Positions 15,997 to 61,887 of a stretch of 64,000 nt of DNA are shown piece by piece (positions within the stretch are counted from its first letter, which is position 1; every line of letters begins with the position of its first letter). Location of the stretch: IMG/VR virus record IMGVR_UViG_3300040957_000063. One strand, 5' to 3'. Source of the stretch: an uncultured virus (IMG/VR IMGVR_UViG_3300040957_000063). Taxonomy: Duplodnaviria > Heunggongvirae > Uroviricota > Caudoviricetes. The translations under genes were made by a program, and so were the position numbers. Below the pieces are notes generated by a model. It worked only from the letters and a program-made list of their open reading frames with translations. It searched no databases and was not told where the DNA came from.

Positions 15997-16437
15997 ATGC
16001 CGATGATTACAACTAAACGGTGGGAACTTGTTCACGAGTGGGAATCCGAAAGATGGGATTCTCAAGGAGTATGGACTAACGAAAAGATGCAAGATGAACT
16101 TGACTCTTTGGACGAGTTTAGAGCAGAAAACGTTCCTTCTATGTCGCTAAAAGACTTAGTGGAACAAATTATGACAAGCGGCATAGTCAGAAAAGGAAAC
16201 GTAGAGTTTAATTTCATAGATTTAAAAAGACTGTTTCACTCATGGAGTCATCTTACAACTAACTGCAAAGAATATGGGCGGTATTGGGTAGCTCAAGACG
16301 AAAGTTATCTTGCTTGCTTAGTGGACGAGCACAGAAAATGTGATGGCGAAAACAAGCAATGCAAACAATATAAGCCTATGATTAACTGCAAACCTCTGGA
16401 AGAGCTATTAAAAACGGAAAAGGTGCAATTTGACTGA
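15997..16437 (+). CDS. Hypothetical protein with C-terminal KVQFD motif
   Basis: Ends EKVQFD-stop; member of the C-terminal motif set. Confidence 0.6.
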   Translation: MPMITTKRWELVHEWESERWDSQGVWTNEKMQDELDSLDEFRAENVPSMSLKDLVEQIMTSGIVRKGNVEFNFIDLKRLFHSWSHLTTNCKEYGRYWVAQDESYLACLVDEHRKCDGENKQCKQYKPMINCKPLEELLKTEKVQFD

Positions 16438-17498
16438 TGCCAATAAAACTTCATTGCGACCACGACAATGCTGAACTTGTGCTTATTAAAGACCCAAGAA
16501 CCCCAGAAGGTTTACTCGAATGTCCTAAATGTCATTGTAGATTTAGAGCTATTTTGGTTACATCCGATGCCAAATGCTACAACAAGAGATTCCCTCAGAA
16601 GAAAGTAACAGAAGTAACAAAAGTAACAAAAAAGAAGTCTAAAAGCTCTGCATTGTTAACTACTCCTTTTTACACGAGTGAGGATGGAAAATAATGACAA
16701 GCCTGATGTATTGGAACGTCAAAGAAGCCCGTGAATTTCTACTGAAAAACGGCTATGTATTCACTTTACGTAAACCCAGAAAGGAAGGTCCAGCAATAGC
16801 CGTAGTAGGCAGTTTCTATGACCATCAACCAATTGGCTCAACTTTCGTTAAACTCATCAAAGAAGATGTACAACACGCCCACGAACTTTCGGCATATGTA
16901 GCTGGAAGCGGTATAAAAGCCCAGATTACTCTATGCGATTGTGGTTACGATGACGATGCTCACCAATGGTTCGGTCTTGCTAACGAACTTTCAGGACAAA
17001 AACTTAACCTATATCTCGTCACAATGGATATGACAGGGATGTACAAAATCCCGCCCAGAAAAGAAGGACCAGTTGAGAAAGTTTTAAATCATACTTCAAT
17101 GTCAGCAGAGGAATTATTTAGGTGATAAACTATGTGTCAAGTTGAACTAATGAAACTTAGAGTAAAATGCTCAACTCCTAACGAAGTCGATTATATGTTC
17201 GTTATGTGGAAGAAAAAAGGGCAAATAGGCATATGTAAGACTTGTTGGGAGAAAATCGGAAACAAAAATTGGGAATGCGGCGATAGACCAAGACCAACTT
17301 TTGAGTCATTGTTTACTGGTCGCGGATTAGAAGGTGCTGTACTAACCGAGTATAAAGTCAAAGACACAATCAAAGAATCACTTGAAAATGAGGAAGAAGA
17401 ATATTGAATTTCCTAAGTGCGTATAAACTATGTATTGGAACCCTATTCTATTGGGCGGATAAAATCCTAATGGGTGAAGATGCATATTCAAAGGAGTA

Positions 17499-18392
17499 TT
17501 GGACAAGTTGACCGTAAGAAAGAAAAAGAAAGTAGTAAAATTCGATAGATTCCCTCATATTCCGAACCTAAGCGGCGGCAGATTATGTCGTAGCTTGCTC
17601 GGTAAGAGGTTATTCTGGACAATCAAAGAAGACGGTGAATGCGTATCAGTATGGACTAACATAGTTAGAAAGAAAGAAGTCATTCATATCGCCAGCCGAA
17701 ACCAAGAAAATGCATCGACAGACATTAAAGCCAGAACTATGAACACAGAGGAATTTCCAAAGGTTCTTCAAATGATACGAGATAATCCTCTATTCAGAGT
17801 TGTAGTAGAAGAATGCAGAAAAGGCAGAAGCGTTACAGGAATCAAGACCTATGACCGAGACCAACTATTCGTGATTGCCATTTACGATACGGCAATAGAA
17901 AATTGGCTTCCATACACGCTTATGTACCAAACTACATACCATTATGGACTTGGACCCCAAACAGTAAAGTTGTTCGCTGAAACTCGTCATAAAACAATCA
18001 AAGATTTAGGCAAATTCAAGAACCACGTACTCGAAGTTTGCGACAGCCAAACAGACGGCAAACAAAAAGACGAAGGTATGGTTTGTAGCACTTTCGATGA
18101 CGATGGAACATTGATTATGGCTAAGGTAAAGCTGGACATTCCTGAGCCTCAAGAGAAGAAAATACGTGAAGGTGCACCAGAATTTCCACAGATTCCAGTA
18201 AGCGAAATTATGGGTTCAATCAGCAAAGTAGAAGCCGATTTCGGACTGACAGGACAAGCTAAAGACGACATGCCGCGAATAGCTAAGTATGTTAGCGAAG
18301 CCTGTAAAGAACATCTCTACTCAAGCCGAGGAAACCTATTCCAATACTATCAAGAATATATGGATAAAATGGTGAACAAAAAAGATGAGTAA
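17499..18392 (+). CDS. ATP-dependent RNA ligase-like nucleotidyltransferase
   Basis: Motif I KEDG, ASRN, motif IV DEGMV, motif V AKVK. Confidence 0.7.
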   Translation: MDKLTVRKKKKVVKFDRFPHIPNLSGGRLCRSLLGKRLFWTIKEDGECVSVWTNIVRKKEVIHIASRNQENASTDIKARTMNTEEFPKVLQMIRDNPLFRVVVEECRKGRSVTGIKTYDRDQLFVIAIYDTAIENWLPYTLMYQTTYHYGLGPQTVKLFAETRHKTIKDLGKFKNHVLEVCDSQTDGKQKDEGMVCSTFDDDGTLIMAKVKLDIPEPQEKKIREGAPEFPQIPVSEIMGSISKVEADFGLTGQAKDDMPRIAKYVSEACKEHLYSSRGNLFQYYQEYMDKMVNKKDE

Positions 18393-18791
18393 AACTCCAA
18401 AAAGAAAAATGTTGATAGCCGATATAGAAGCTATAATGCATCCTAAACACCCAGATTGCATAATCAATATTCCAGAAAAAGTCATTGACGAAGTATTAGC
18501 AAAGATTGACGAAATGGACAAGGAAATGCTTGCTAAGGAAACTCAAGCCAATCAACTGTATTCAGAAGTTAGGGTTCTTCAACATAAAAAATATGAATAC
18601 TTAGACGACATATTCTTTGGTCATATTGATTCACAACGTATGATGGCTGGCGGTTTGTTAATGGAAAACCACGAGTCGAGTGAAGATAGAAGACGGCGAA
18701 ATGAAGAAGCCAGAATTGCCAGAGAAGAACGAATTGATACGCTCGTTCGTATCCTTCAACGAAACAAACGTAGAATCGAGGAAAAGAAACG

Positions 18792-19352: not shown

Positions 19353-19571
19353 GGATTCTAAAGCTGAGAAAAAGTAGTGGTTGCATACTCGAAGTTATAG
19401 AATTTGACAACGGTAAAGTAGCGGCGTGTTGGCAGACAGACGTTCCAGAAGTCGCTATGTATGACAACTTAGACCAATTCTTACGTATGAGAACCCCAGA
19501 ACGAGGATACACGCTAATCGAGAACCGTAAAGTTTAAATACTGGTTATCGCCACATATAGATGGGATAAAA

Positions 19572-21055: not shown

Positions 21056-21092
21056 ATACCTGAATGGTGATATATAGTATGGTGATAAAAAT

Positions 21093-23772: not shown

Positions 23773-23774
23773 TT

Positions 23775-26706: not shown

Positions 26707-27310
26707 ACTCCGTAGAAAGACTTAAATAGCTGTTTTTCTCTCCATTATTCACGGAAGGTGACATATATGGAAGCGTGTTACTTAGCTAAAGAGCAAGGGA
26801 TAAACACCTGTGAAAGTTGTTGGGCTAATTGTGGATGTTGGGTTTTTGAAGTTATAGACAAGAATGGAATAAACAAGCCTTTGTTCAAACCGCAACCTTT
26901 ATAAGAGTCGTTAATGACTATGTTCATATGTCGATGGCTGAGAAATATCCGCTTACTGAGAAGCCTTTTGAACTGAAGAAACCAGCTTACGCCAGATGGC
27001 AATATACTCTTTCTGGATGGATACGGATGATTCGGACAGATGACACTCAAGAAGGGCAAGAAATGGAACGCCAAATTCTCAGCAGAATGTGGGAAGACAA
27101 AGAGTTTGATAGAAAGATTCGTAAGCAATGTGAAGATTGGACTAACGAAGACCCAGAAGATACGTGGGAAAAATACCAAGAGAAACTTGAGTTAGAAAGT
27201 CGTAAACCTGTCCGTATTCAAGGCAAATATAAGGGTCGCGGACATGGAGAAAAGCGGCGTTAACCATAACATTTAAATACTCGTTTCTTCTCCATATTTT
27301 ACGAATATAA

Positions 27311-27884: not shown

Positions 27885-28715
27885 GTGACCATAATGAGCA
27901 AAAGACCAGCGGATATAAGCGGTTCAATTCGTGATTTGCAATATGAAATCGACCAAGCCATAGAGGAAGCCAGAGCCGAAGGAAACAAAGAGGGATATGA
28001 ACAAGGCAAATCAGATGGCGATGACGAGGGTTATAAAAGAGGATATGCAGACGGCAAAGCCGATGGCAAATCCGAAGCTGAAGAGGAATTTTACAAGAAA
28101 GAGAAGGTGCCGTTTACTTGAATTTTCAAGTTGGAGATAGGGTTCAAATAGTCGGAGTAGGGGATTGGGGAAATGGCATAATCACAGGAATTTCAAGAAA
28201 TATTTATTATACCGTGAGGACAGATAGCGGAGTTATACTTGAGCTTGCGTTTCAAAGTATGAAATTGCTTCCTGAAAAGGTGCGGTTTACATGATGAGAA
28301 AATATCCTCACGCGATAACCCAGAAATGCGGCAAATGTGGTAGTATATTCACTTGTAAAGGGACAGGTTGGAAACTTACAAAAGATGGAAGATGTCCTTA
28401 TGCATATACTGGTTGTCATTGTGAACAATGCCATCACGGAGAAAGTCGAACTGAAGGTTGTGAAGAAGTTATAGATGAGTTTGAGGTAGTGCAATTTACA
28501 TGAAGATTGAAAGAAGTAAACCTAAGAAAAAGAGCAAAAAATTAATGGTTAATATAGAAACTAAAAGTATTTTTATTCGTGAAGTTGAAGACCCAGAGAA
28601 AGCCTTAAAAGTTATTACTTCTTTTTTGAGTAAGGAAGGTATAAGTGACGAAAGTTTCATTCATATTATGATTACTAATCCTATAAATAAAAATGTAAAG
28701 GTGAAGTTCGATTGA
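27885..28715 (+). other. Chain 1 of four coupled microprotein genes ending in [VI]xF[TD] (27885-28121, 28118-28294, 28291-28503, 28500-28715)
   Basis: Ends EKVPFT, EKVRFT, EVVQFT, VKVKFD; 4-nt stop/start overlaps. 28118-28294 was translated by hand (SH3/KOW-like FQVGDRV). Confidence 0.85.
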
Positions 28716-29697: not shown

Positions 29698-30208
29698 AAA
29701 TGAATTTCCTAAACCAACAGGTAGGCATCATAATAAAAAATATTGTGGTGAAGTATGTCATTTGAGGGCAAATAAAGCATATTACAAAAAGTATCGAGAA
29801 ATCAACAGAAAAAAAATTAATATCAATCAAAATAAAAATAAAACAATACGTTCATTAAAACAACATAACAAATTAAAACAAGACAAAATTGAATTATTTC
29901 AACTTCTTGGTGGTAAATGTAATAATCCAGATTGCCCTATTCCAATTGAGAAGATGGATATAAGATGTTTACAAGTGGACCATATTAATGGAAAAGGTTG
30001 TAAAGAACGTAAACAATATGGAAGAGGTTCGACACTTTATAGAAATATATTAAAAAAAGTAAAAGCTGGTTCTAAAGATTATCAATTACTTTGTGTTTAT
30101 TGTAATTGGTTGAAAAGTTTTGAACAAAAAGAAAGACCATTAATCCCGATAATATTGGTGAGCGAAACAAAGGTTGAGAACATTGTTGACGTACAAACAA
30201 AGCTGTAA
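29675..30208 (+). CDS. HNH endonuclease
   Basis: LLGGKC...LQVDHINGKG...SKDYQLLCVYCN. Confidence 0.8.
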   Translation: MSICPICKNEFPKPTGRHHNKKYCGEVCHLRANKAYYKKYREINRKKININQNKNKTIRSLKQHNKLKQDKIELFQLLGGKCNNPDCPIPIEKMDIRCLQVDHINGKGCKERKQYGRGSTLYRNILKKVKAGSKDYQLLCVYCNWLKSFEQKERPLIPIILVSETKVENIVDVQTKL

Positions 30209-30717
30209 GCATTTCAAGCATTTAAAGGCGGCACGATTTCCTACTAAACAGTCTAAACCTGTTAGTAGATGGGTTTATAAGATTGTACGATGGATGATTG
30301 CAGAGGATAAACGTTTAAATGAGGAAGAAAAGGTGGCATTCACATAAGCAAATTCAATACACTTTATTTGCTTCAGGGTGCTAATAAATTCAAGTTAGGG
30401 TACGTAGAGTTAGACCTTACAAAGACTATAGGCAAACCTAATTGGGAAGTAACAATAAGATGCGAAGATATTTGGGGCGTTTGGAAAGCGTGGGATAAAA
30501 ATCAAACGTTTGTGCTTTATGCAGAATGGTCTTATAAATCTCACGGGATAGTTTATCCAGAATCTATTTCTGGCGAGTTTTATATACTCGAAATCAATAC
30601 TAACAAAACATCAACTCCAACTTCGCCAAGAAAACTTTACACGTTAAGTGGTGTTTCTCCTAATTTGACAGTTTCAGGTATTCCCGATAATGAACGAGTA
30701 AAGGTGATGTTTGACTA

Positions 30718-31227
30718 ATGGGCTACATATATCTATATACAGGAAATGGTGCGGGAAAGACTACAAGTGGTCTCGGTCTTGCACTACGAGCTTTAGGTCA
30801 CGGACAGAAAGTATTGGTTATCCAATTCTTGAAGTGGAACCGAACTACTGGCGAGTACCTATTTCAACACCCTAACTATCAAATAGAACAATTCAGCAGT
30901 ACCGAATGGATAGGTATTGCAACTCTGACTGAAAAGGACGCTAAAGAATGCCGAAACGGATTAGCTACAGCTTATCTACGATGCAAGTCACAGGACATAA
31001 ATTTGCTAATTCTTGATGAGATAAACTATGCTGTGTCTGTTGGAATGCTGGAAGAGGACGATGCTATTGATTGCATACGCCGTCTTAAAGTAGAATGTCC
31101 AGAACTTAATATAGTGCTTACAGGCAGAGCGGCTACAAGGAAACTTAGAAGAATCGCGGACTACGTTAACATAATTAAAGATGTGAAAAGTTCAGGATTA
31201 GTAAATGATGAGGGTATTCAATGGTAG
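30718..31227 (+). CDS. cobO: Cob(I)alamin adenosyltransferase (CobA/BtuR/CobO type)
   Basis: YTGNGAGKTTSGLGLALRALGHG, VIQFLK, ILDEINYA, VLTGR, ADYV. Confidence 0.88.
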   Translation: MGYIYLYTGNGAGKTTSGLGLALRALGHGQKVLVIQFLKWNRTTGEYLFQHPNYQIEQFSSTEWIGIATLTEKDAKECRNGLATAYLRCKSQDINLLILDEINYAVSVGMLEEDDAIDCIRRLKVECPELNIVLTGRAATRKLRRIADYVNIIKDVKSSGLVNDEGIQW

Positions 31228-31357
31228 AAAACAATGATTGTCAATGTTATACTTGTGCTCGTGACAGTTGCAAGCAGTATAAGTGTAAAACTACTTGCGA
31301 TAAATGCTACATTGTGCCTTACACAACACTAAAATGTTTAGGTTACTATAGAGGGCG

Positions 31358-34174
31358 TTGTTGACGACAAAAGCTGACCCAGCTAAAGTTGAGCGAATAC
31401 TAAATATTCTAAGAAAAGACCCACGTTGTCCTAAATGTCATTGTTATCTTAATGAGGCTGAGTTATGGCAGAAAAAATGCGGTGTATGCAAAACACCGTT
31501 CATATTCTTCAATGATGGTTCCGTTTTAGATATGGGTGCTGTGATGGTGGAGTTTACTTGAACCAGAAGTACATTAGAATGTCAGATATATTCTTCGAGG
31601 ACTTTGGGATAAGAAAAACTAAGTTTGCCATTCAACACTTTCTAAGAAACGATGGAAAAAATAACGTCAGGGTTGATACTAAACTTCCAGATGACGTTAA
31701 GGTTGTAAAAATAAGTTATGACCTAAGATACGCTATTTCTACGGTGATTCTTGAGAGCAAGGAATTCGTTGGAGAACAGGACGAAATACAACTTCAGCTT
31801 ACAAAGATTTATGATTACAAAGAAAAGGAGATAGTAGCCTTCACATGAAGAGACTTCCCAACTCGGCTTTTGCAGACCCTAAAGCCCGTAGATTTCCGAT
31901 AACGGATAGAACACACGTAAGGGTTGCAATTCTTACTGTAATATGGAGATTTAATCATCGTCCTTCTACTGAATCATTAGTTTATTTAAAAGAGGTTCAC
32001 GATAAAATTTTGATTCGAGCCGATGAATTAGGGATGGATATGAAACACGAGTGTCCATTATGCGACACAAAGGTTAAGGTGCAATTTACTTGAGGGGAAT
32101 ATGCTTGCTTTGTGGCTATTACTTACAAAGATTGACGCTCCCGAAGAATTCTCCCTGTTTCAAATGTGACCCTGAGTTAAAATCCGAGAAGGTGCAGTTT
32201 ACTTGATTCAATGTGAATATGGTGATGTTCACTTTCTGCATTCTCCAATAAAGCGATGCTTGAAGGATGCAAAATTTCTTGTTGTATTTACACACGGTCA
32301 TCCAGTTGTAGTGCCATTTCACGATATAAATGTTGTTTGCGAGGAACATCTTAAACAACTACGTAAAAGAGGGACCAAGATGGAATTCTACGAAATCATA
32401 TCATATAACGAAAAGGTGGAGTTTACTTGAGAAATTATATAAAAAGGGGTAATAGTCTATTAATCGAAAAAATCAAGTACACAGGTAAACTTTATAAATG
32501 CCCTGTATGCGGCGCGACAATAGAGGGCTACATGGAATCATTCTGGAAAACTCCAAAGGGAAGCGTCTATGGCGATATAAAACAACCAAATAGACCAGAC
32601 GAAGACAGCGATGAAGATAATGATGAATTCATTTGGAAAGAAGTAGCTGGTTGTGTTCGTTGCTTAGACTTCTGGGATGCAAAAGACTTATTAGATATAA
32701 CCCCTGTGAAGGTGCATTTCGATTGAAAAACTGTTGTGCTTGCAATAAGCCTTATAAGACATATGGAAAATATAAAGAGCCGAGGATAATGCAAGTTTCT
32801 GTAGCTGGCGAAACAATTTTCTTTTGCCCAACTTGCAGAAAAATATGGGGTGAAATGCGTCACAAATTAGCTATAAAATATGTTAATTCATCAATTCGTA
32901 GTGAAAAATACAAAAAAGAGCTACGAGGGTTATTAGATTCATTTTGCAGAGGCAGAAAGGAGAAGGTCGAATTTACTTGAGTGCATACTTCACAAGAGAA
33001 GACGAAAAGGAAATGTTCGAAAAAATGATGGATAATGTAGAGAGAAATATAGATGGACGAGGTTTGATTTTCTCTCAAAGACACCGAATAAGATGGTGGG
33101 CGGCTAAAGGTTTGAGATTTTGGATTAAACAAAACGCGCCAGAGAGGATTGAGTTTACGTGAGCGTAATAAAGCCTAAAGACTACATTCCTGATTGGTTC
33201 CGTTGCCCTATTTGCAATGAGGAATGCTATGGATTTATGAGTTGGGCTGGTCATACAGGAACAAACCATCAGATGGATTGCATAACTTTCGAAGAAAAAA
33301 TCGGGGTCTGGAAGAGTTTCTTCGGTACCAAATGGGAATTCTTCAAGAATGGAAAACAAATAATAATTGACGACAGAGAGAAGGTGTTGTTTACTTGAGC
33401 AAAAAAGAAATAGAATATTTCAAGAAACACGGGTTCTGTATGTACTTAGGAGAATGTCAAGGCTCGGTTGATTGTAATGGTAAAGTTTACGAGTTTTGCC
33501 GTTGCCGAGCACGGAATATTAAACCAGAAGATTTGCTTCCGCCCTCAAAGGAGAAGGTCAGGTTTACTTGAGAATATTCGAACATAGCAGCGGTCAAATA
33601 ACGAAATGTGATGAGTGGAAGCGGTACCCGTGCGAAACGTATGAATGCCCTCACACTAACCATTGCTTGATTTATCCAACTATACGAATAAAGGTGCAGT
33701 TTGATTGAGATGTCTTGCTATGCTTGATTCTACTAACGAACAATGCCCTAATGAGGGATTTTACCATATAACTACTTTTCAGAAGGATAAACAAGGAATC
33801 TTAAAGAAATTTAACGAAGACGTATTTTGCGCGGACCATTCTTGGGAGTTTGCTATGTATTACTCTAACTATCTGGGATTAAAAGTAATAGTGAACTATG
33901 CTAAAATCATTCCAGACAAGGTAGATTTCATATGACTAAGAAACATCCCAGATTCAAAACTATGGCTGAAGCAATAGAATGGGTTGTGCAATACCAAGTT
34001 AAGATTCCTGAGTACGAATGCCCAAAATTCGATATGAAACATCCGACTCCTAAAGATTTACAAGAGTGTGGCTCTATCTGTGAAAATCATTGGGGTTGCC
34101 ATACTTTCAGGCATTTAATGGGTACTCGTGACCCCGAAGACCCGAATGTTCCAGAGGTGATACAATTCACATGA
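31358..34174 (+). other. Chain 2 of thirteen coupled microprotein genes ending in [VI]xF[TDI]
   Basis: 31358-31561, 31558-31848, 31845-32093, 32090-32206, 32203-32430, 32427-32726, 32723-32980, 32977-33162, 33159-33398, 33395-33571, 33568-33708, 33705-33935, 33932-34174. All have NTGA stop/start overlaps and most contain CxxC. The short ones were translated by hand. Confidence 0.88.
31845..32093 (+). CDS. DUF6582-like small protein with KVQFT tail
   Basis: LPNSAFADPKARRFPITDRTHVRVA resembles a recurrent viral LPxSxFAxPxxRxFP domain. Confidence 0.5.
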   Translation: MKRLPNSAFADPKARRFPITDRTHVRVAILTVIWRFNHRPSTESLVYLKEVHDKILIRADELGMDMKHECPLCDTKVKVQFT

Positions 34175-34254
34175 GAGACAAATGCAAGGAATGTATTCCT
34201 AAGTCTGCTGGTACAAGAACCAAAGACCCAGATTGTGCTAACTGCAAAGATTAA

Positions 34255-35090
34255 CTCCCCTACCCCAAAAGCATTGATGAAATTTTCTGCATCAATTTCA
34301 AAAAATAGGCATTTTTATTATTTTCTTTTCTCGAAATCTTAGCTGATTATTTTCAAATTAATAAGAAAATAAGAAATAAAAATAATTCCAAAAATTTTTC
34401 CAAAACTATTTCGAAAAATTAATTCTCAAAAATCAAATTTTCCAAAAAAATCGCCTATGTACCTGTTTTTTCGGTGACCATTTTTTTAAAAAAATTTTTT
34501 TCGAAAGGTTTATATAGAAGCCATTTTCGAAAAGTTTATAAGTGGGAGAAGAATTTTCGGTTAATCATCTGATTAAATTAGCTGGTTTGCCCCGACCAGA
34601 GTGGTATGAGGGCTGGTAGCATCAGAACCGAGTGTAACCGTGTCAGAACCGAGTTGACGGATATGCCATCTGGTTCACGAAATCGGGTAAATTTAATCAA
34701 CTGATTAAACAAGCAGATTTCGAGCCGAGGTTCATCTTTTCACTTCGAGAAATTTCGAACGTTCAGAGGCATGGGAAAATTTGTGCCGACCAGAGATTTT
34801 CACGTATCTGAGCTTGGGTCTCCCCGACAAAAATCGGTAGAATATCGCTCCTTTTCGGAAATTCGACCCATTTCGAAAAGTGGGGTATGGTCAATTTGCG
34901 TGGTGGGTTAACCCGCCGAGGAAAATCGGGAGAACATCGCTCCGTTTGGCGAATTCGATTCAGTTCGATGGTCAGATTGGTTCGTCTGACCAGCCTTCGA
35001 GGGCACACCGCTTTTTTAATCCATTGATTAACTGACAAACTCATGGGCGAGAATGGACTTTTCGGGGTAAGGTTTATAAGCAACCGAACT
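34255..35090. other. Long non-coding region, candidate replication origin or control region
   Basis: A/T-tract block 34300-34560, then a GC-richer block; three TTAATC-N4-GATTAA palindromes; direct repeat TCAGAACCGAGT at 34622 and 34643; many TTCGA(A). Confidence 0.4.
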
Positions 35091-35110
35091 ATCTCTTATA
35101 TTTGACCAAT

Positions 35111-36293
35111 ATGAGTGACCCTGAATTAGTAGTTGAAAAGTGTAAAGAATGCGATAAAGACTGTTGGGGTTACCAATGGAACGAGAAAAAACAGGGTTAT
35201 ATCTGTCTCGGAGAAGAAATGGGGTTGTTCGGAGAAGAAAAGGAACAGGTTGAATTTACTTGATGGAATCTGACTCTCCTTATTTACCAAAGTGTCCTAA
35301 CTGTGGACGTAACTTATGGAACATAGATAAAAAGGATATAAAATGGGTTCCGAATGGTCACAAATACAAAATGGGAAACAAAATGGTTGAAGCAGTTGAC
35401 CCCGTTCCAATTAGGGGAACTTGCGGTTGGTGCGATGCAGTAGTCAACTTTGAGGAATTAAAAGATGAGGTTGTGCAATTTACATGACAGACGAAACTTG
35501 TGGACGATGCCACAGAACTTTCCACGAGCATTTAGGTATGGTTTCGCCTATTGACGATAAAGGACGTAGCACAGGCAACGTTTTGCTTTGCCGTGTCTGT
35601 ATGGAACTTTGGCATAAAGTTTACTATTCTGCTGGCAATAAAATCGGTAGCATAGAGTTTTTTATAAAATGGGATAAGCAATGGAGAAAGTTTATGAGGG
35701 GCGAAGCAATTATAAAAGAGAGGATTGATTTTACTTGATAGACGAAACTTGTGACCGTTGTGGTACTCATACGTACTTATTCACTTATGGATATAGCAAA
35801 GTTGGCTGTCACTTGTGTAAAAAATGCGCTCGTGAGTGGGAAAAATTTATAATGGACATTCACGTTAAAAGTAAAGTTCCGTTAGCTTCTGAAGATTGGC
35901 ATAAAATAGCTAACGAACATTTAGCCGAGTTTTTACTTCAAACCCCAGAGAAGGTAGAGTTTACTTGAGCATAAAGACTTATAGAACAAAAAGAGAAGGC
36001 GTTGTTCGAATGAGTTTGAAAGAATCAAGAGAAGGAAACTCTGTTAATCACAGTTTCGTAATTGACGGGGTACGTTATAAGTTTTTAGGATTCGAACAGC
36101 CAGACGGCAAAATAACTAAGAAACGCGGAGATGGAATTCCCGTGTTTCAAGTAAGGGTTAAACAGAAGGTCGAATTCACTTGAACATGGACTTTCTTGAG
36201 AAAGCTATAAAAGACTGTAATTGCTCATTCTGTATTAAAAAAAGACGAGAACAAGAAGAGAAAAATCCAAAGGAACAGGTAAGTTTCACATGA
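35111..36293 (+). other. Chain 3 of six coupled microprotein genes ending in [VI]xFT
   Basis: 35111-35263 EQVEFT, 35260-35487 EVVQFT, 35484-35738 ERIDFT, 35735-35968 EKVEFT, 35965-36183 QKVEFT, 36180-36293 EQVSFT; CATG-box promoter at 35049. Confidence 0.88.
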
Positions 36294-36303
36294 CCGAACA
36301 CAT

Positions 36304-36654
36304 ATGCAGTTATCGAGAGGGAATAAAAAAATGAACCCATATATTAAGAAAATCGTAAAACATAAGGCTAAGATAGCTAAGAAACAATCGGAACTAAGTA
36401 GGCTGTTAGAAGGTCTGTCAGGATTCCGTAGTGCGATTCTCGGCGAACTTGATGCTCTGGAACAGGGCAGAATAGTTAGTTTGCAACGTGCAAAAGAACT
36501 ATACGACCAACGTGTTGCCGATGCAAAAGCCCTCTACGAAGTCACACTTACTAATGCAGAAGCGACCCAAAGCAGAACCATTGATAGCGTAAACAGCACG
36601 ACTGACGCACAGAAAGCAGAACTACAAGCTGTCGTTGACGAACACTTTTCATAA
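36304..36654 (+). CDS. Coiled-coil protein
   Basis: All-helical amphipathic sequence; T-rich terminator-like tract after the stop. Confidence 0.55.
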   Translation: MQLSRGNKKMNPYIKKIVKHKAKIAKKQSELSRLLEGLSGFRSAILGELDALEQGRIVSLQRAKELYDQRVADAKALYEVTLTNAEATQSRTIDSVNSTTDAQKAELQAVVDEHFS

Positions 36655-48574: not shown

Positions 48575-49564
48575 ATGAAACAAGAAGAAGCGGTAGATTA
48601 CTTTCAAAGATTGCATAAGAAAGGCGAACACCTATGCATATTGGTATGGTCAACAGAGGACGTTATCGGACAGGCTCAAGAACATCATATTAAGATAACT
48701 CAGGCTGAAGCTGATAAAATCGTTGAAGATATGGAACGTCATCACGATGCATCATTTGGGGTTTCGTGGAGTACAATAGACAGTTATCTCGATGACTTAG
48801 TGACCGAACGATTAGCCAAAAAGAAAGATGAGAAAGCTAAGGAGAAGATTCAGATTGACTGAAAGGTTAACTCAGCAACAGATTCACGATTTAAAGTCAA
48901 CTCCGCTTCGCTGTGGTTTATGCAATAGGGTTGTGAGAGAAAAGACTTGGGAAGAGCATATGGAAAGTAAAGAACACCAATTTCGTTTAGAATTGCTGAA
49001 AGACAAACTCGAAGAGAAACGAAAACGTTACAACAATGACGAACTTCTTTGGGGTGGCAAAGAGGTTGAGGAAGTTAGAAAAGGGGCTGACGCTCCTATG
49101 GAAGTAAACTTCACATGATTAACCCTTCTAATATTCCCGAATGCACATTGAAGATATTAAAGGAAAAGCCAGAGTTGGCGATAGTTTTTGGTTACGAATT
49201 AAACGCTAAACTTTGTAAATTCAAGCCAAAATACAAAGCTGGCGATATAACCAAAGTCTTGATTATGTCTAACGAGGACGAAACTACACCTTCAGGGTTT
49301 GTTCCCCGTGAACTCCCAATTAATGACCCAGAAGATATAACCGAGAAAACAGAAATCTTCTACGCCGAAGTTGAAATCACAGGCTACTATGAACAGGGCT
49401 ACGGATGCATTATTAAACAGATTCTTTACAAAAGAAATGACGATAGCGAATTTGACGAAGTTGGACATCATCACACTTATCATACAGCGTGGTTTGAGAA
49501 AGCTAATAACAAAGAATTTATTGAAGCAATTTTCGAATTACAAGAGAAGGTATCATTCGATTGA
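48575..49564 (+). other. Chain 4 of three coupled genes (48575-48862 EKIQID, 48855-49118 MEVNFT, 49115-49564 EKVSFD)
   Basis: C-terminal motif or a variant; overlapping stops and starts; CATG-type promoter at 48521. Confidence 0.75.
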
Positions 49565-49938: not shown

Positions 49939-50784
49939 ATGACAGAATTAGAAAACAAAATAGCGGTAGTTGAAGGAGCAGACGTACTAAACGCCAAAAT
50001 GATGGACGAGATAGTTCAACATCTCATTGAAAACGGCAAGCTAATGGTAATTGGCTTAGGCGGTACAGGCAAAACCAACACTACGATGCACATTGTACGC
50101 TGGCTTATGCAAATGGTACAGTACAAAGCTGGCAATATGGTTATCCGAATAGGCGATAGCTCAAACGTCTGGAAGCTAAAGTTCGATAAAATCCCTTACA
50201 TTGACATCACCAAGAAAGCCTCAATTCCCGAAGAAGAGAAAACTGTTTTACTTGACTTAGGCTATTTGGACGGCGCAAAAAACGTTGCTATTCTCCAAAA
50301 CTTAATCGGCGAGGACTACTATTCGCAACGTGAATTAATGAATAACAATCACGGTCAAACTCCAATAATGAGAATCTACGTGCTCGAAGAAATTCAGAAT
50401 CTCTTTGATTCTAACGGTAAATCTAAATTCTGGCTCAAGATTTGGTCGGAATCACGAAACTACGGTCAATTCTTCGTTGGATTAGCCCAGAGACTTAGCG
50501 ATGTTTCCACAAGGATAGTGGAACGTACAAAGTGGATGCTCATAGGCTCTCTTTCAGGAGACAATGACTTAGCTAAGATACGCCGAATGTTCGGAAAGAC
50601 AACAGGAGAATCCGTCATAAACAAGATTCAATCATTGAAGCGCGGAGAATTCCTATTGATTGACAGAGAAAACACAGAAAGTTCATTCAAAATCTACTTC
50701 CCTCAGTTTATCCAAGACGGTCAACCTTACGAGTTTAACTCCAAAAACAACGGTCATATGCGCGTGGAGAGGATATTCCTTTGA
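49939..50784 (+). CDS. HerA/FtsK-like P-loop ATPase
   Basis: Walker A GLGGTGKT, Walker B YVLEEIQ, SRNYG...LAQRLS; follows a TM-protein gene (49635..49937). Confidence 0.7.
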   Translation: MTELENKIAVVEGADVLNAKMMDEIVQHLIENGKLMVIGLGGTGKTNTTMHIVRWLMQMVQYKAGNMVIRIGDSSNVWKLKFDKIPYIDITKKASIPEEEKTVLLDLGYLDGAKNVAILQNLIGEDYYSQRELMNNNHGQTPIMRIYVLEEIQNLFDSNGKSKFWLKIWSESRNYGQFFVGLAQRLSDVSTRIVERTKWMLIGSLSGDNDLAKIRRMFGKTTGESVINKIQSLKRGEFLLIDRENTESSFKIYFPQFIQDGQPYEFNSKNNGHMRVERIFL

Positions 50785-51086: not shown

Positions 51087-51970
51087 TTGATAGTTGGAAT
51101 GCATATTATTGATGACTTCAAAGTTGAGGACAGCGAAGAATTAGTGAAAGAACTACGCGAACGAAACTTGATAGACTTTACGCTTGAAGAAGTTAAAGAA
51201 TTAGTTTCAAAGGAATATAACGGCGCGGATTTCGAGGACGTTCAATTAGAGGACGATTGTTTAAACTATATTCTTGAGGATTTAGCTAAAGGAAACTACT
51301 ATTGGGAATATCATGAAGAAGATAAAGAGATGTTTACGATTTACGTAATTGACACAAAAGACCCGTTTACAATAGATGGTCACGTTCCAGATAACAAAGT
51401 AAAGGTGAATTTTGATTGAAAAGAACAGAAGTATTAAAAGCACTAAGAAGTATTCCGACAGGGAATATTCAAACTAATGAGCAAATTATAGCTGAGGCAT
51501 TAATTTTCATTATTGAGCATCCAACGGAAGTGAGTTTTACATGAGTGAACGCAAAAAAGTATCTTTCAAAGTAACTTATATTGGCAGTTGTGCCCCAACG
51601 AGATTCCAAATACAAAAGGCTCTGCTTGACGGTGGCATGGATGACTACGGAATTATAGAGGTAGTAGAAGTTGAAAGTTAGTCTGCGCTGGCTTAAAGAG
51701 TCAGATGACGAAATTGCTAAAGTTTTTCGTAGTGCTGTCTCTGGAACAACCGATTGTGTTTTATGTTCAATGTTTTTGGAAACTTTGTGGACAGACGAAA
51801 ACGGCGTAATGTCTAAGTGTACTTTTGATGAGATTTGTGAAGATGAACTTGAGCATTTTCAACAGATAGCAGACTTGTACGGTTCAGGCTCTTACAGTTT
51901 ACAAATTGTTTCGCTCGATTATTTGCCTCACGAGACTCAAGGTGGAAGGGAGATAGTAAAATTTGATTAA
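51087..51970 (+). other. Chain 5: 51087-51419 VKVNFD, 51416-51544 TEVSFT, 51671-51970 EIVKFD
   Basis: Same C-terminal motif; 51416-51544 translated by hand. Confidence 0.75.
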
Positions 51971-52003: not shown

Positions 52004-52468
52004 TTGTTCTTTATATTTTTGGGTGTAATAGTGAATAAAGAAGAACGGGTAGTATATATGGCTGATTGGTTCCAACACTTAACCCCAGAGAAAAGAGAAG
52101 AACGCAACGAAGGGGCAAAGGATTGGCAACAAAAACACCCAGAACAATTTAGAAAAAAATGTGAGGAATATCGAAAATTGAGAAAGAATGCAGAATATTG
52201 GAAGGAATATTTTAGAAAACTCAAGAAATGGGCTGTAGATAAGAAGGGACGTAAATGTGAAGATTGTGGTTTAGTTTCTGAATATGACTGTGTTTATGAC
52301 TTCCATCACGAAAATGGAGTTGGAACGTGGTCTAAAGAGGAAAATAGTTCAAATGCAAGAACAAAAGAACTTATAAAATGGAGAAAAGCAAATAGTATTC
52401 CAGAAACTTGTAAACTTCTCTGCGCCAACTGCCACAGAATTCGAACTTTTAAACAACTGATTAACTGA
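52004..52468 (+). CDS. HNH endonuclease
   Basis: CEDCG...VYDFHH...LLCANCHRI; close paralogue of 55118..55543(-). Confidence 0.8.
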   Translation: MFFIFLGVIVNKEERVVYMADWFQHLTPEKREERNEGAKDWQQKHPEQFRKKCEEYRKLRKNAEYWKEYFRKLKKWAVDKKGRKCEDCGLVSEYDCVYDFHHENGVGTWSKEENSSNARTKELIKWRKANSIPETCKLLCANCHRIRTFKQLIN

Positions 52469-52939: not shown

Positions 52940-53188
52940 ATGATAGACAGATGTGACAGGTGCGGACGAATTGCGGAAACAAGCGAAGTTATTAGAGGGT
53001 TCAATGGAAAAATTCCAATAGAACTTTGTAAACGATGCTTGACTGAATGGAGTGCCCTTTGGTTGAAAACTTACGGACAAGAATCTTTTGCGGTTCGTTC
53101 TGGCGAGAAAACTTTGCCGATTGAGACAGAAGATTTATGGGAAATGTTTATGAACGAAGAACTAAAGGAGATAGTGTGTTTCAGTTGA
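52940..53188 (+). CDS. Zn-finger microprotein with EIVCFS tail
   Basis: CDRC...LCKRC...W, similar to 35484, 35735 and 61217. Confidence 0.65.
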   Translation: MIDRCDRCGRIAETSEVIRGFNGKIPIELCKRCLTEWSALWLKTYGQESFAVRSGEKTLPIETEDLWEMFMNEELKEIVCFS

Positions 53189-53492
53189 GTCATCATTTAC
53201 AGTTACATTATACAGACATTGCAACTTTAGTTCCTATTCCAATGTGTGAACATAGGCTCATTCACGAACTTTAGTAAAGGTCGAGTTTACTTGAAAACTG
53301 CGCCGAAAAATTGTTGGAAATGCGATGGTAAAGGATTTATAATTAACAAATTCGAGAGGGAAGTATGCCCTAAGTGTAATGGTTCTGGTTTTATAAGTAA
53401 AAATATAAATGATGATTGTTTTACAAGAAAACTTACCTAAACCATAAGACTTATATATAAGATTGATACACTTATATATAAGGTGAAAAACT

Positions 53493-55543: not shown

Positions 55544-55727
55544 ATTTTTATAAGCACCACAATGTTTATATAATGGTCAATCCTCTATTTAAAAGTTATG
55601 GTTTTTATTTAACCCGAACGAGTAAGTTTTGTGGAATTTTAATCTACTGATTAATTAGAAATGAGCATGGGCGTTCTCCCATAATGTTTATTAGGTACGC
55701 CCCCTTTCTTGTTGGGTATAAGAGCGT

Positions 55728-58496: not shown

Positions 58497-59080
58497 TTAA
58501 AAGTTCCCATAAGACTTATATATCAGGAATACATCATACTGTATGGATGCCTATGATAAGACCTAAAATAAAAGACGTATTCAAACCAAAAATGTTGAAC
58601 CCTAAATTAACAGAATTAGAGTTAGGTTACTTAGTTGGTTTAATAGACGGCGAAGGAACTATAACTATAACAGCAAGAAAAAAAATCAAGAAAAAAGCGG
58701 GATTTCAATTGTTAGCAACTTTAACAATAGTTAACACATCGGAAAACTTAGCAATTTGGTTACAGTCTTTAGGATTCAGAAAGCAAAAACGCAAACGATT
58801 CGAACTATACAAAGTTTGCTATATGGCTTGCTCGGAAGGATATGGAATATTACCGTTATTAAAGCGAATAGAGCCGTATTTAATGGTTAAACAAAAACAA
58901 TGCCAATTAGTAATTAAGTATATAGAGAAACGTTTGGAAATGGAAATGAATTCGCCTTATGATAAACAAGATGTAGAAATAATGACACAAGTAAGAACGT
59001 TGAATATGAAGGGTAAACGATTTCCCGTTCGTCCTCTTTATCCAAACTTAGTTAATCAACAGATTAAAATTTCGGTTTGA
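58484..59080 (+). CDS. Free-standing LAGLIDADG homing endonuclease
   Basis: YLVGLIDGEGT...IVNTS...IEPYLMVKQKQ. Confidence 0.85.
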   Translation: MPKIVKSSHKTYISGIHHTVWMPMIRPKIKDVFKPKMLNPKLTELELGYLVGLIDGEGTITITARKKIKKKAGFQLLATLTIVNTSENLAIWLQSLGFRKQKRKRFELYKVCYMACSEGYGILPLLKRIEPYLMVKQKQCQLVIKYIEKRLEMEMNSPYDKQDVEIMTQVRTLNMKGKRFPVRPLYPNLVNQQIKISV

Positions 59081-59146
59081 GCATGGGGAAAGTGGGCAAA
59101 GGTTTAAATAAGACATTGACGTATCATCTTTTAAGGTTGAAAGAAA

Positions 59147-60019
59147 ATGAATGAAAAAGCAAAAGTTGAAAAAGCACTCGAATCCTCTGGAATATACGTA
59201 AAGGGAATAGAATATATTGATGAACATAATTACATTGAGAAGGCACGGGCTATTCTCGAAATAGTTGGTAATTTGCGTTTATGCGGGGAGACAGGTACGG
59301 GAAAAACAACGTTAGTACACAAACTTGCCGAACTACTTTCCGTGCCCTTATATGAAATTGTCCTTACGCGCGATGTTACCAAATGGGATTTACTTAGTTG
59401 TGATACATTGGAGAATGGCAGTACAAAAACCCGTGAAGGCATAATAATTCAATGGCTCAATTCGGAAAGTGGTTTGCTTTACATAGATGGCTTTAACTAC
59501 GCCGAGCCAAGCATCATATCGTTGTTAGAGTCACTTGCCGATTTTCGCGGAAATATCTGGGTGCCAGAATATAAGCGCGAATTCACACGGACGGCGAAAC
59601 ACTACTTAGCCATAAGCTACAACCCAAGCGAAAAATCTGGCTACTCAGGGACATTCTTAGAAAACATTGCAACAATTAGACGCTTTGAAGGACTATTGAT
59701 TGAATACTTATCACCGCAAAAAGAACGACAGTTAATCACAAAGTTCGCTGGAAAATACGATTTTAGTGCTCGATGGGTGGAAATCGCACATAAAACGCGA
59801 ACTGAGTACGAAAACGGTAAATTGCGTACACCTATCACAACAGGTAACTTAATTAATTACGGAAAACTCTATAAAGCTGGAATGAGCGAGGACGATTTGA
59901 TTGAAATAGCTTCGAGCCTTTTCACCGCTAAAGAAGAGAGAAATCTATTCTTATCGTTCTACGAAAATAGTGACGATATTGATATTGAGAAACTTAAGAA
60001 AGAAGATGTAGATAGCTAA
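59147..60019 (+). CDS. MoxR/CbbQ/CobS-type AAA+ ATPase
   Basis: Walker A GETGTGKT, degenerate Walker B LYIDGFN, SYNP...YSG, ATIRRF. Confidence 0.8.
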   Translation: MNEKAKVEKALESSGIYVKGIEYIDEHNYIEKARAILEIVGNLRLCGETGTGKTTLVHKLAELLSVPLYEIVLTRDVTKWDLLSCDTLENGSTKTREGIIIQWLNSESGLLYIDGFNYAEPSIISLLESLADFRGNIWVPEYKREFTRTAKHYLAISYNPSEKSGYSGTFLENIATIRRFEGLLIEYLSPQKERQLITKFAGKYDFSARWVEIAHKTRTEYENGKLRTPITTGNLINYGKLYKAGMSEDDLIEIASSLFTAKEERNLFLSFYENSDDIDIEKLKKEDVDS

Positions 60020-60082
60020 GATTCCATAAAATTTCTTTTTTATTTTTCTGTTAAGTAAAACCAAAAGACTTAAATAGTAGTT

Positions 60083-60682
60083 TTGTGTATAATACTTGGG
60101 GATTGTATGAAAAACCCAACTATAAAGAAAACTTGCTTAAACTGCAAAAAAGAGTTTGAAACGACTGACTCAAGACGAAAATATTGTGATGATAAATGTA
60201 AACGAGAGTTTAGAAAAGATTATTATGATACATATAATAAAAACTACCGTTTGACACATCCAAAATACTTTCACGATTATGTAAGAACGGAAAAACATAA
60301 AACTCGTGAGCATAATCGAAGGATAGAAAAATATAAAAATGATGAAGATTATCGTGAGAAAATAAAAGCCTCTTCGATAAGTCAAAGAAATAAAGCCAGA
60401 GATGAAGTTATTGCTTTGCTCGGTAGTAAGTGTGCTAATCCCTATAATTTACCACATCCAGATTGGTGTAATGAAAAAAGAGTATTAGAGGTTGACCATA
60501 TAAACGGCGATGGATGGAAGGAACGAAAAGAAATAGGCTCAAGTGGTAATGGAAAATACTTTAGATATATTCTCAAAAAAATTAAAGAGGGTTCTAAAGA
60601 TTATCAATTGTTATGTTGTAACTGCAATAAAATAAAACAAATAGAAAAAAGAGAATTTAGAAAACCTAATGAGGCAGAATGA
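60083..60682 (+). CDS. HNH endonuclease with N-terminal Zn finger
   Basis: CLNC...YCDDKC; CANPYNLPHPDWC...EVDHING...YQLLCCNCN. Confidence 0.8.
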   Translation: MCIILGDCMKNPTIKKTCLNCKKEFETTDSRRKYCDDKCKREFRKDYYDTYNKNYRLTHPKYFHDYVRTEKHKTREHNRRIEKYKNDEDYREKIKASSISQRNKARDEVIALLGSKCANPYNLPHPDWCNEKRVLEVDHINGDGWKERKEIGSSGNGKYFRYILKKIKEGSKDYQLLCCNCNKIKQIEKREFRKPNEAE

Positions 60683-60953
60683 GCATGGGCGTTCTTGCAC
60701 AATGCTTATTAGGGACGGCGTATTCTCCTATTAATAAACGTGATTGAAACATGAGAACTGAAAAAGAAATTGAGGATAAATTAGAAGAATTAAAACAAAA
60801 AAGTAAAATTTTTCCCTTTCCTCACTCACAATGTTTGAAAGACCCAACAAAAAAGTGTATGAGGGATATTTTCTTTACGCCAGAAGAACAATCAAAAAGT
60901 AAATATGGTTGTGTTATTTGCCCCCATAATCCTTCTTATATAGGGGTTTGTAA

Positions 60954-61887
60954 TTGAGCGAAACTGAAACATTCGAGATTTACTTCGATGACCTCTCAGA
61001 GGACGCGAAAAAGCGTTTCCTCTCATTTGTGAGGCTGAAACGCCCAGAGGACGGCAATTATGGCATTTTTCCGCTTGCTACGTTCGAAGTTGAAACTGAA
61101 GTGCTCAAAGAGAACGAACAGGAAACCAAAAGGGCAGAACGCGAAGAGGCAAAAAAAGAACGTAAAAAACCCGAATCTGTTAGCTTCAATTAATCCCCTT
61201 TTTTAGAGGAAATTTTATGACCGACTTAATATGCGATAGATGTGGTAAAAAACCAAAAATTAATGAACACCTTAATTTTCACAGTAAAATTGTTAAACCA
61301 ACTCGTCTTTGTACGAAATGTGAGGGCGAATGGGACATTTATTGGCATACTTTTCTTAGAGGAAAACCCGATGGTGATTGGATAATTGGGTTTGAAAAAT
61401 TTATAAGGATGGAAATGAGGCAAAAAGAGGTAATAGAGTTTACTTGAGGCAACCTTATGAGTATTTATAACGAATATACAACTAAAAAAGGTTGTTTTAA
61501 TTGCGATAAATTCAAAGTTTGCCCCTTTATTAAAATAGAAAGAATTAATGGACGGAATTTTACTAATATTATGGATGATAATGATATGGCTGTTCCATAT
61601 GTTTACGGCTGTGCTTGTAGTGACTACCAAACCCATAAAAAAGAGAGGGTTGATTTCACTTGATTAAAAGCGGTTGTTGGTGTTGCAAAAATAGGAAAGG
61701 AACTTGTTGCTCAAGAGGAAGCCATAAAGATAATGACCCATTTTATTTTATAGATTCTACATGGAAAGATGTCCAAGAAAACATTGCTGGCAAACCCGAT
61801 AAAGCTGGCGTGGTTGTTGGCTCTGGCTGTATAAACTTAACCCATAAGTTCAATCATGTTGAGAGGGAAAAAGTCGAGTTTAGTTAA
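60954..61887 (+). other. Chain 6: 60954-61193 ESVSFN, 61217-61447 EVIEFT, 61457-61663 ERVDFT, 61660-61887 EKVEFS
   Basis: Same C-terminal motif; two end in TAA with no overlapping start. Confidence 0.8.

Follow-up and report, generated by a model that had tools for sequence, protein, structure and literature searches.

The 64,000-nucleotide (nt) stretch of the uncultured virus record IMGVR_UViG_3300040957_000063 (IMG/VR), hereafter the window, encodes dozens of small proteins that end in a common C-terminal tag, [VI]-x-F-[TDSN] followed directly by the stop codon, and this ending is encoded by a stereotyped joint that also provides the Shine-Dalgarno sequence (SD) and the start codon of the next gene. 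Comparison with orthologs and relatives showed, at the level of sequence, that the tail is selected as amino acids, namely at E(–6), V/I(–4), F(–2) and the small polar last residue (positions counted from the C-terminus). The reading that we favor, with a probability of about 0.55, regards the tail as a C-terminal short linear motif carried on a flexible linker and the joint as dual-coded. The tail would then probably be an address label, about a quarter of the virus genes would form one functional class, and dozens of unrelated hypothetical microproteins would share a destination whose identity a single pull-down could reveal. Besides, the joint is a clear natural case of dual coding, i.e., a 21-nt module selected as a translation signal and as a peptide, and such stereotyped joints allow turnover of gene content with expression left intact.

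A common tail on small proteins with different bodies

All long open reading frames (ORFs) of the window lie on the + strand, for which a non-overlapping gene model holds 145 genes and 19,312 residues. The tag ends 35 of the 207 + strand ORFs of at least 35 residues and 35 of the 145 modelled genes. An earlier note on this DNA, made from the letters alone, had reported about 35 small ORFs with such an ending, and these 35 lie at its coordinates. It had also proposed a comparison of C-termini with internal and shuffled positions, which reveals a clear enrichment: the gene model contains 42 internal copies of the motif and 35 at C-termini, whereas the internal rate predicts 0.32 terminal cases and shuffling within proteins (n = 1000) gives 0.18 on average and never more than 3. 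The tag was found in 35 of the 108 proteins of up to 150 residues and in none of the 37 larger ones, the microgenes of the arrays encoding 37–149 residues (median 76). In a six-frame count, a stop directly followed the motif in 40/119 occurrences on the + strand, compared with 12/171 on the – strand.

The wider consensus of the tail is [K/P/R]-E-[K/x]-[V/I]-x-F-[T/D/S/N]-COOH. The last residue is T in 24 tails, D in 8, S in 2 and N in 1, and position –2 is Phe in 35/35 and never Tyr, this Phe being the sole aromatic residue. Position –3 is mainly E (9), Q (7) or S (4) and is hydrophobic in few tails, whereas position –7 is K, P or R, with no conserved Gln. As the earlier note had described, codons vary synonymously, Phe being encoded by TTT (23) or TTC (12) and position –4 by six codon types (GTG 18, GTA 6, GTC 4, GTT 3, ATT 2, ATA 2). 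The tagged genes form chains at 27.9–28.7, 31.4–34.2, 35.1–36.3, 48.8–49.6, 51.1–52.0 and 61.0–61.9 kb, with single genes ending at 16437, 30347, 30718 and 53188 (Table 1). For three genes (32723, 32977 and 48855) the better start is the overlap codon, and two genes carry degenerate tags, DKVDFI at 33935 and EKIQID at 48862. No description of the tag was found in the literature outside subscription journals.

The bodies in front of the tail had been called dissimilar, which holds with one exception. Indeed, blastp with the last eight residues removed found no general kinship, its matches being confined to one four-member zinc-finger family (35484, 35735, 52940 and 61217) and one further borderline pair (22 residues, E = 0.001). 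No Pfam family reached the cut-off for the 37 tagged or near-tagged proteins, three tagged bodies match three different PHROGs, and the phrog_4785 profile stops 10 residues short of the C-terminus of the protein encoded at 27885. Body compositions are diverse (acidic/Gly-rich, helical, Zn-ribbon), and two or more CxxC-like pairs occur in 10 of the 35 proteins. Pro is enriched 2.4-fold at positions –12 to –7, the six residues before the tail. An AlphaFold2 model of the zinc-finger family (4 sequences, predicted local distance difference test score (pLDDT) of 73.9) consists of a Zn-ribbon and two helices with residues 73–77 below pLDDT 50; in this one usable model the tail is thus predicted to be disordered and outside the fold. 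A Foldseek search of the PDB with this model found nothing at E ≤ 0.001, the best match having an E-value of 0.08.

These data make it highly improbable that the tagged microproteins are one hyper-diverged superfamily of which the tail is the last conserved structural element. The tail is the only shared segment, CxxC-like pairs recur and one true paralog family exists, as common descent would suggest; however, the search without tails recovered little more than that family, lengths and compositions are very different, the matched bodies fall in separate PHROGs, the tail is disordered in the model, and homologues of the 51671 protein exist without it (see below).

The joint as translation signal and as peptide

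The consensus joint spans 21 nt, GAG AAG GTG nnn TTY ACW TGA. The TTG, ATG or GTG start of the next gene overlaps the TGA stop, so that GGTG is located at –12 to –9 of this start, the distance found for free-standing SDs; E-K-V of the tail thereby coincides with the GGTG SD of the next gene, and the TTG/ATG start of that gene takes its first base from the last tail codon. Because AAG GTG is the SD of the next gene, tail codons are biased: GTG accounts for 18/31 Val codons (9–10% genome-wide), GAG for 17/25 Glu codons (23–30%) and AAG for 18/19 Lys codons (23–28%). The tail overlaps by 4 nt an ORF of at least 30 residues in 23/35 cases, with an SD-like tetramer in 21 of these 23, and an ORF of 25–29 residues in 4 more; 2 tails have a 1-nt overlap and 6 are uncoupled. 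The start codons fed by the 30 TGA joints are TTG (20), ATG (8) and GTG (1), whereas those at untagged overlaps are ATG (13), TTG (6) and GTG (1).

Two remnants show that the joint serves as an initiation region even without an intact upstream ORF. A remnant joint at 53253–53294 still gives a GGT-type SD and a TTGA start to the gene 53291–53440, and in the related contig L006 (see below) a 40-nt tail remnant of a displaced gene (3886–3928) still gives SD and TTGA to the downstream gene. Two other functions of the joint were considered and rejected. TGA recoding was dropped, as the large conserved genes are open under table 11 and the next gene always lies in another frame; a promoter or terminator was dropped, as TATA-like boxes are located elsewhere and the joints are not followed by a T-run.

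Each microgene is most likely translated by termination-reinitiation from the preceding gene, as judged from this geometry and from published work on ATGA overlaps. According to Huber et al. (2019; PMC6728339), termination-reinitiation accounts for translation at ATGA and TGATG overlaps in an archaeon and a bacterium, and the intragenic SD contributes to a variable extent. The window resembles the coupling described there in its 4- or 1-nt stop/start overlaps and in the SD within the 3′ end of the upstream gene, and its leaderless leading genes with SD-led internal genes reproduce the pattern of Crenarchaeota I and Haloarchaea given in that study. Compared with what is described there, the joint of the window differs in its stereotyped 21-nt form, which recurs through dozens of consecutive microgenes and mostly has TTG starts, and in being selected as a peptide too, even where coupling is impossible.

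The tail could then be a pure by-product, namely the translated initiation region (SD, 8-nt spacer, overlapping start) of the next gene, with uncoupled copies as recent relics. This would account for GGTG at the standard SD distance, for the strong SD bias of the E, K and V codons, for the 4- or 1-nt overlap with the next start in 25/35 tails, for the remnants that persist as initiation regions without an upstream ORF, and for tagged joints feeding mostly TTG whereas untagged overlaps feed mostly ATG. Such an origin is nevertheless unlikely in view of several features of the tails. The window holds 20 untagged 4-nt overlaps with SD-like bases and diverse endings; therefore, coupling does not need the tail. 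Nor does a standard spacer prescribe it, as that of free-standing SD genes is A-rich and not TTYAC. Besides, six tails (30347, 36293, 51970, 61193, 61447 and 61887) are uncoupled, the next start being at least 10 nt away or absent, and the four of them that the earlier note had listed as ending in TAA with no overlapping gene (30347, 51970, 61193 and 61887) indeed lack an overlapping start. At 16437 and 30718 (the latter with TAATG) the overlap is 1 nt and the SD lies 3 nt out of register, the start being 3 nt further on, while at 48862 the start is shifted 3 nt upstream and the tail reads EKIQID. The tail is thus anchored to the stop and not to the next start.

Residues are also kept where the bases are not. 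The tails at 61193 (GAA TCT GTT AGC TTC AAT TAA, ESVSFN) and 61887 (GAA AAA GTC GAG TTT AGT TAA, EKVEFS) have lost the SD-like bases, yet E, V, F and a small polar last residue are retained. The first two T's of the Phe codon are invariant, and its third base is free (T 23, C 12), matching genome usage of 55–63% TTT; at the TTNACWTGA sites, 25/25 are TTY. The codon of position –3 takes 21 different forms, and the last residues T, D, S and N are alike chemically whereas their codons are not. Conservation of the tail is thus codon-periodic, and in orthologs the wobble of Val is free as well, neither of which a by-product would explain.

Two metagenomic contigs, L005 and L006, reached from one homologue (GC 37–38%, all genes on one strand), carry the tag with the same joints on 16/36 and 10/21 of their + strand ORFs, respectively, and 3 of these 26 tails (L005 7268, L005 10633 and L006 3885) end in TAG or TAA without an overlapping start. 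Genes shared by L005 and L006 are 80–92% identical, and residue differences in their tails are confined to –5 and –3. In five independent ortholog pairs of 32–57% identity, each from the window and one of these relatives, the last 12 codons without –1 were compared ungapped. At positions –6, –4 and –2, 4 codons are identical, 8 differ synonymously and 3 encode another residue, compared with 3, 6 and 31 at the other eight positions (Fisher, p = 1.6e-4 for residues kept and p = 8e-4 for synonymous vs. replacement). A comparison of synonymous with non-synonymous variation, proposed in the earlier note, thus finds synonymous change at the motif positions and replacement at their neighbors. In addition, the gene 51671 and its counterpart L005 10319–10633 (53% identity) are both uncoupled, have TAA and TAG stops, respectively, and are each followed by a different HNH gene; their tails, EIVKFD and EKVKFT, share E-[IK]-V-K-F-[DT], and the linker ahead of it is not conserved and contains an indel.

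More distant homologues point in the same direction. When 1.84 billion representatives were searched with the zinc-finger family (hmmsearch), 53 matches were returned, and 43 of the 49 from outside the window end in E-x-V-x-F-[TDNS]; a 45-sequence alignment, with 19–46% identity to its first member, shows no substitution at the Phe of the tail, the four Cys and one Trp. In the 51671 family, the tail is present in 8/13 homologues and missing in 5, most tail-less ones being among the weaker matches. One tail-less homologue ends at the domain end, and the tail is therefore an add-on. Selection on the peptide, as claimed by the earlier note, is hence supported by uncoupled tails, anchoring to the stop, free wobble at Phe, orthologs and distant homologues. 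That note had set against its own claim an explanation by nucleotide constraints throughout. This holds for E, K and V in part, which are SD-driven, and leaves the uncoupled tails and the synonymous changes in orthologs unexplained. Nevertheless, the nucleotide side had been given too little weight, as half of the motif is, judging from its bases, also a nucleotide signal.

Selection on residues could also reflect an action in cis, the nascent E-x-V-x-F-T slowing termination or recycling on the ribosome and thereby aiding reinitiation at the weak overlapping TTG. Amino-acid-level selection would then go together with the tight tie to 4-nt overlaps and TTG starts, and the tail could stand on any body and look disordered. 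This is likewise unlikely: the tail is retained in uncoupled genes and in genes that end an operon, TAA or TAG being the stop in some of them, while untagged microgenes are joined by the same 4-nt overlaps without it, and we know of no such arrest peptide in archaea.

Several points weigh against the tail being a peptide motif with a dedicated partner. SD and start overlap constrain at least 7 of the 18 tail bases; therefore, part of the E, K and V conservation is nucleotide selection. SD-type codons are fewer in uncoupled tails, AAG being present in 1/6 of these vs. 13/23 coupled tails, which is a trend only (Fisher p = 0.17), and none of the Fisher tests on such a loss reached significance (p = 0.17–0.36). 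The uncoupled tails could be recent relics of coupled ones. The 51671-family gene precedes an HNH homing-endonuclease gene in both the window and L005, and this insertion may be recent. The ortholog comparison being ungapped, some linker replacements may be misalignment; the zinc-finger profile included the tail columns, which favors tailed matches, and the count of 43 tailed homologues is based on protein sequences, irrespective of their state of coupling. An AlphaFold2 model of the 28118 protein has the tail in a long strand; it is based on a single sequence (pLDDT 66.6) and is too poor to use. Finally, no reader protein for the tail was identified; docking is thus inferred, and so are its beta-strand mode, capsid loading and a proteasome link.

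Cassette turnover and a candidate reader

Gene content differs between L005 and L006 at the joints. One gene (5474–5650), two genes (5924–6402) and three genes (6602–7268) of L005 are absent from L006, with boundaries inside joints; the L006 joint at 2063 combines the left part of the L005 joint at 5927 with the right part of that at 6402, and at L006 3607–3885 a non-homologous gene with its own tail replaces a cassette and leaves the 40-nt remnant mentioned above. Between these two contigs, whole genes are thus shown, from aligned sequences, to be gained and lost exactly at joints, because all joints are alike, while tag, SD and start stay intact. This fits the description of the genes as interchangeable in the earlier note.

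A repeat search of the window recovered the joints as its largest repeat families, which raises the possibility that the 21 nt are kept for in-frame cassette shuffling and that the peptide is incidental. The three or more L005/L006 differences bounded inside joints, between genes otherwise 80–92% identical, and the size of these repeat families would fit; the joint is however a poor substrate for homologous exchange, with only about 12–15 fixed bases, a free codon between them and wobble variation. Selection for future shuffling is weak and leaves codon-periodic conservation unexplained. Integron-like cassette arrays share the repeated inter-cassette joint with the arrays of the window; they need a dedicated site-specific recombinase, and no integrase or site-specific recombinase was found in Pfam and PHROGs scans of the 70 larger window proteins. 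A recombination origin is thus very unlikely, and we read cassette turnover as a consequence of repeated joints and not as the reason for them.

In the favored reading, the joint acts twice. Read as RNA, AAGGTG puts GGTG at –12 to –9 of the next TTG/ATG and most likely enables termination-reinitiation. Read as protein, the joint gives every microprotein a [K/P/R]-E-x-[V/I]-x-F-[T/D/S/N]-COOH ending after a variable, proline-enriched linker. Through such an ending, numerous microproteins that are unrelated and turn over fast would be recruited by a single shared reader, engaged by inserting V/I(–4) and F(–2), with the free carboxylate beside the small polar residue; the reader may serve to load virions, to time proteolysis or to dock the proteins on a host machine.

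The tail was compared with known terminal signals. HbYX tails, which bind the proteasome alpha ring, have a hydrophobic residue then Tyr at –3/–2, and the PIP box that binds PCNA follows Q-x-x-[LIVM]-x-x-[FYW]-[FYWL]. Both share with the tail an aromatic residue near a free C-terminus on a flexible tail, to be read by a hub. The HbYX assignment was rejected on the invariant Phe at –2 and on position –3 being mostly E, Q or S, and the PIP box on the single aromatic residue, the V/I-x-F spacing and the lack of a conserved Gln. C-termini of the PDZ or tail-specific-protease type have a hydrophobic last residue, which T, D, S and N are not. The FxSxx-COOH small proteins of vWA-MoxR systems have Phe at –5 and Ser at –3; here Phe is at –2, and the scan of the 70 larger proteins revealed a MoxR-like AAA_5 but no vWA domain.

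Other likenesses concern the layout of the signal. The capsid targeting sequence of phage T4 internal proteins, carried by cargo found in virions, is likewise a short terminal peptide on a flexible linker common to unrelated proteins. It differs in being N-terminal and cut off by the prohead protease, whereas the tag is C-terminal, and there is no sequence likeness. Encapsulin cargo-loading peptides are C-terminal and load unrelated cargo into a shell of the HK97 fold; the tag resembles them in its C-terminal position, its Pro-enriched linker, its disorder in the model and its unrelated bodies, a working likeness only and with no sequence likeness. Type IV secretion effectors carry C-terminal translocation signals read by a coupling ATPase of the VirD4/TrwB type. 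In the window and both relatives, unrelated proteins with a shared C-terminal signal likewise surround a HerA/FtsK/TrwB-like P-loop ATPase; that of the window, however, is a bare 281-residue P-loop domain, and no secretion apparatus was seen.

Among enzyme-like genes, that of this ATPase alone lies within the arrays of each of the three genomes (L005 8672–9547, L006 4598–5470; 59% identity in a three-way alignment), and it is, on sequence grounds, no more than a lead as to the reader. Its family assignment is weak, with an E-value of about 1e-4 by sequence and look-alikes by features and structure. It ends in ERIFL/ERVFL, a tag-like ending that lacks the x residue and has Leu in last position and is hence not the tag itself; in L005 and L006 a TAG stop is directly followed by GGTGAT, with the next start 9 nt on. 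A complex prediction of the ATPase with the microprotein 51416 scored under the mark and speaks neither for nor against binding. Structural look-alikes of this ATPase include one cluster that is mostly from Bathyarchaeota, a weak lead to the host lineage. A wider proposal is that the 21-nt joint combines address tag, SD and start of the next gene and cassette breakpoint, and that the ATPase as reader translocates microprotein effectors from a rapidly changing set, e.g., into the virion for co-injection, in the manner of the coupling ATPase of type IV secretion. It is quite unlikely as a whole; if it were true, any ORF placed between two joints would be expressed and delivered to the same reader.

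The virus and further features of the window

The source is, from its gene content and signals, a large tailed virus of an archaeon and not a bacteriophage, because it has an MCM helicase, TATA-type leaderless promoters, GGTGAT SDs and MCM matches to archaeal viruses only. In the Pfam and PHROGs scans, the MCM helicase is complete (PF00493 at 2e-82, plus OB and lid domains). A tblastn search of the phage collection with it matched 19 records, 19/19 being viruses of archaea, and its best solved relatives are archaeal MCMs. Operon-first genes have a TATA-like box about 25–30 nt ahead and no SD, whereas internal free-standing genes have a GGTGAT-type SD at about –12/–11. The same scans found two endonuclease VII genes, several HNH and LAGLIDADG endonucleases, thymidylate-synthase-like, corrinoid adenosyltransferase and sugar-modifying enzymes, KaiC/RadA-like and MoxR/CobS-like AAA_5 (59147–60019) ATPases and an S74 chaperone domain on a tail-fibre protein; no capsid, scaffold, protease or other head genes were found among the proteins scanned, and the window gave no tRNA or Rfam match. 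One window protein is recorded on contigs of up to 147.6 kb; a contig of 144.7 kb also holds window proteins, and relatives are recorded on contigs of 58–71 kb.

Close relatives were not found in IMG/VR with a 452-residue protein, an 84-residue protein and P0064, and megablast of 31000–36500 against the phage collection gave zero matches. The joint pattern had 4 single matches in IMG/VR and 58 in the genome collection, with arrays in none. Three of these 58 chance-level matches (L011, L027 and L032) are on contigs of Bathyarchaeia metagenome-assembled genomes, a further weak lead to the host lineage.

Table 1. Tagged microgenes, the remnant joint and the candidate reader, with coordinates in the window.
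Feature	Coordinates	Strand	Size (aa)	Tail and stop	Remarks
Tagged microgene	15997..16437	+	146	EKVQFD-TGA	1-nt TGATG overlap with next gene
First gene of array 1	27885..28121	+	78	EKVPFT-TGA	TTGA overlap; body matches phrog_4785
Tagged microgene	28118..28294	+	58	EKVRFT-TGA	ATGA overlap
Tagged microgene	28291..28503	+	70	EVVQFT-TGA	Cys-rich; ATGA overlap
Last gene of array 1	28500..28715	+	71	VKVKFD-TGA	only a 25-aa ORF begins at overlap
Tagged microgene	30174..30347	+	57	EKVAFT-TAA	uncoupled; next start 21 nt downstream
Tagged microgene	30368..30718	+	116	VKVMFD-TAA	1-nt TAATG overlap with CobA-like gene
Array 2	31358..34174	+			14 consecutive microgenes stated, 13 coordinate pairs listed below; 4-nt overlaps; every gene tagged save 33705–33935
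Array 2 gene	31358..31561	+
Array 2 gene	31558..31848	+
Array 2 gene	31845..32093	+
Array 2 gene	32090..32206	+
Array 2 gene	32203..32430	+
Array 2 gene	32427..32726	+
Array 2 gene	32723..32980	+
Array 2 gene	32977..33162	+
Array 2 gene	33159..33398	+
Array 2 gene	33395..33571	+
Array 2 gene	33568..33708	+
Array 2 gene	33705..33935	+		DKVDFI	degenerate
Array 2 gene	33932..34174	+
Array 3	35102..36293	+			six tagged microgenes behind a TATA-like box
Array 3 gene	35102..35263	+
Array 3 gene	35260..35487	+
Array 3 gene	35484..35738	+			zinc-finger family
Array 3 gene	35735..35968	+			zinc-finger family
Array 3 gene	35965..36183	+
Last gene of array 3	36180..36293	+		EQVSFT-TGA	uncoupled; next start at +11
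Degenerate member	48575..48862	+	95	EKIQID-TGA	ortholog L005 7446–7787 ends ERVNFT; next gene has TTG start at 48855, 7-nt overlap
Tagged microgene	48855..49118	+	87	MEVNFT-TGA	ATGA overlap
Tagged microgene	49115..49564	+	149	EKVSFD-TGA	sole match among 5.8 billion proteins is itself
HerA/FtsK/TrwB-like P-loop ATPase	49939..50784	+	281		between tagged arrays
Tagged microgene	51087..51419	+	110	VKVNFD-TGA	ortholog L006 5697–6020 ends VKVVFT, 57% identity
Tagged microgene	51416..51544	+	42	TEVSFT-TGA	L005 and L006 orthologs end EKVSFT
Tagged microgene	51671..51970	+	99	EIVKFD-TAA	uncoupled; then HNH gene with own promoter
Zinc-finger family microgene	52940..53188	+		EIVCFS-TGA
Remnant joint	53253..53294	+		LVKVEFT-TGA	out of frame with preceding 29-aa ORF 53185–53274
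Tagged microgene	60954..61193	+	79	ESVSFN-TAA	uncoupled; tail without SD-like bases
Zinc-finger family microgene	61217..61447	+	76	EVIEFT-TGA	next start at +10 with own GAGG
Tagged microgene	61457..61663	+	68	ERVDFT-TGA	TTGA overlap; ortholog L005 6399–6605 ends EQVQFT
Operon-last tagged microgene	61660..61887	+	75	EKVEFS-TAA	no start within 40 nt

Further elements were observed outside the joints. A 16-nt palindrome, TTAATCA-nn-TGATTAA, has 20 window sites at up to 2 mismatches (40 strand matches vs. 0.63 expected): 5817, 6241, 9250, 27688, 27806, 34561, 34693, 35016, 37516, 46982, 48441, 48500, 52449, 54462, 55114, 55639, 59052, 62399, 62465 and 63732. The sites are mostly intergenic, often paired and just upstream of operons, e.g., ahead of the MCM gene and of three tagged arrays (27885, 35102 and 48575), and the palindrome looks like the operator of a dimeric regulator. 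Three copies lie in 34255–35100, about 850 nt without a convincing ORF, which has an A/T-rich start with several TTTATA boxes and a later, more G+C-rich part with short internal repeats (ccgaccagag, gaaccgag). This stretch has no Rfam match; it may encode a non-coding RNA or else act as an origin or as a regulatory hub. Right behind gene ends at 27264, 27652, 28740 and 36684 (also 9475, 21049 and 61901), a CCATAAnnTTTAAATACT-type motif is repeated, which is probably a promoter class of B recognition element (BRE)/TATA type; its 11-mer core showed no significant enrichment in the window (7 matches vs. 4.0 expected).

Finally, homing elements are dense in the window, with endonuclease VII genes at 4215 and 21093 and HNH genes at 52004, 54771 and 61942. 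A 922-residue ORF (55728–58496) matches phage ribonucleotide-reductase large subunits by tblastn only over residues 97–437 and has a weak LAGLIDADG match at residues 335–379, which suggests the presence of an intein. The next gene (58484–59080) encodes a free-standing LAGLIDADG endonuclease.

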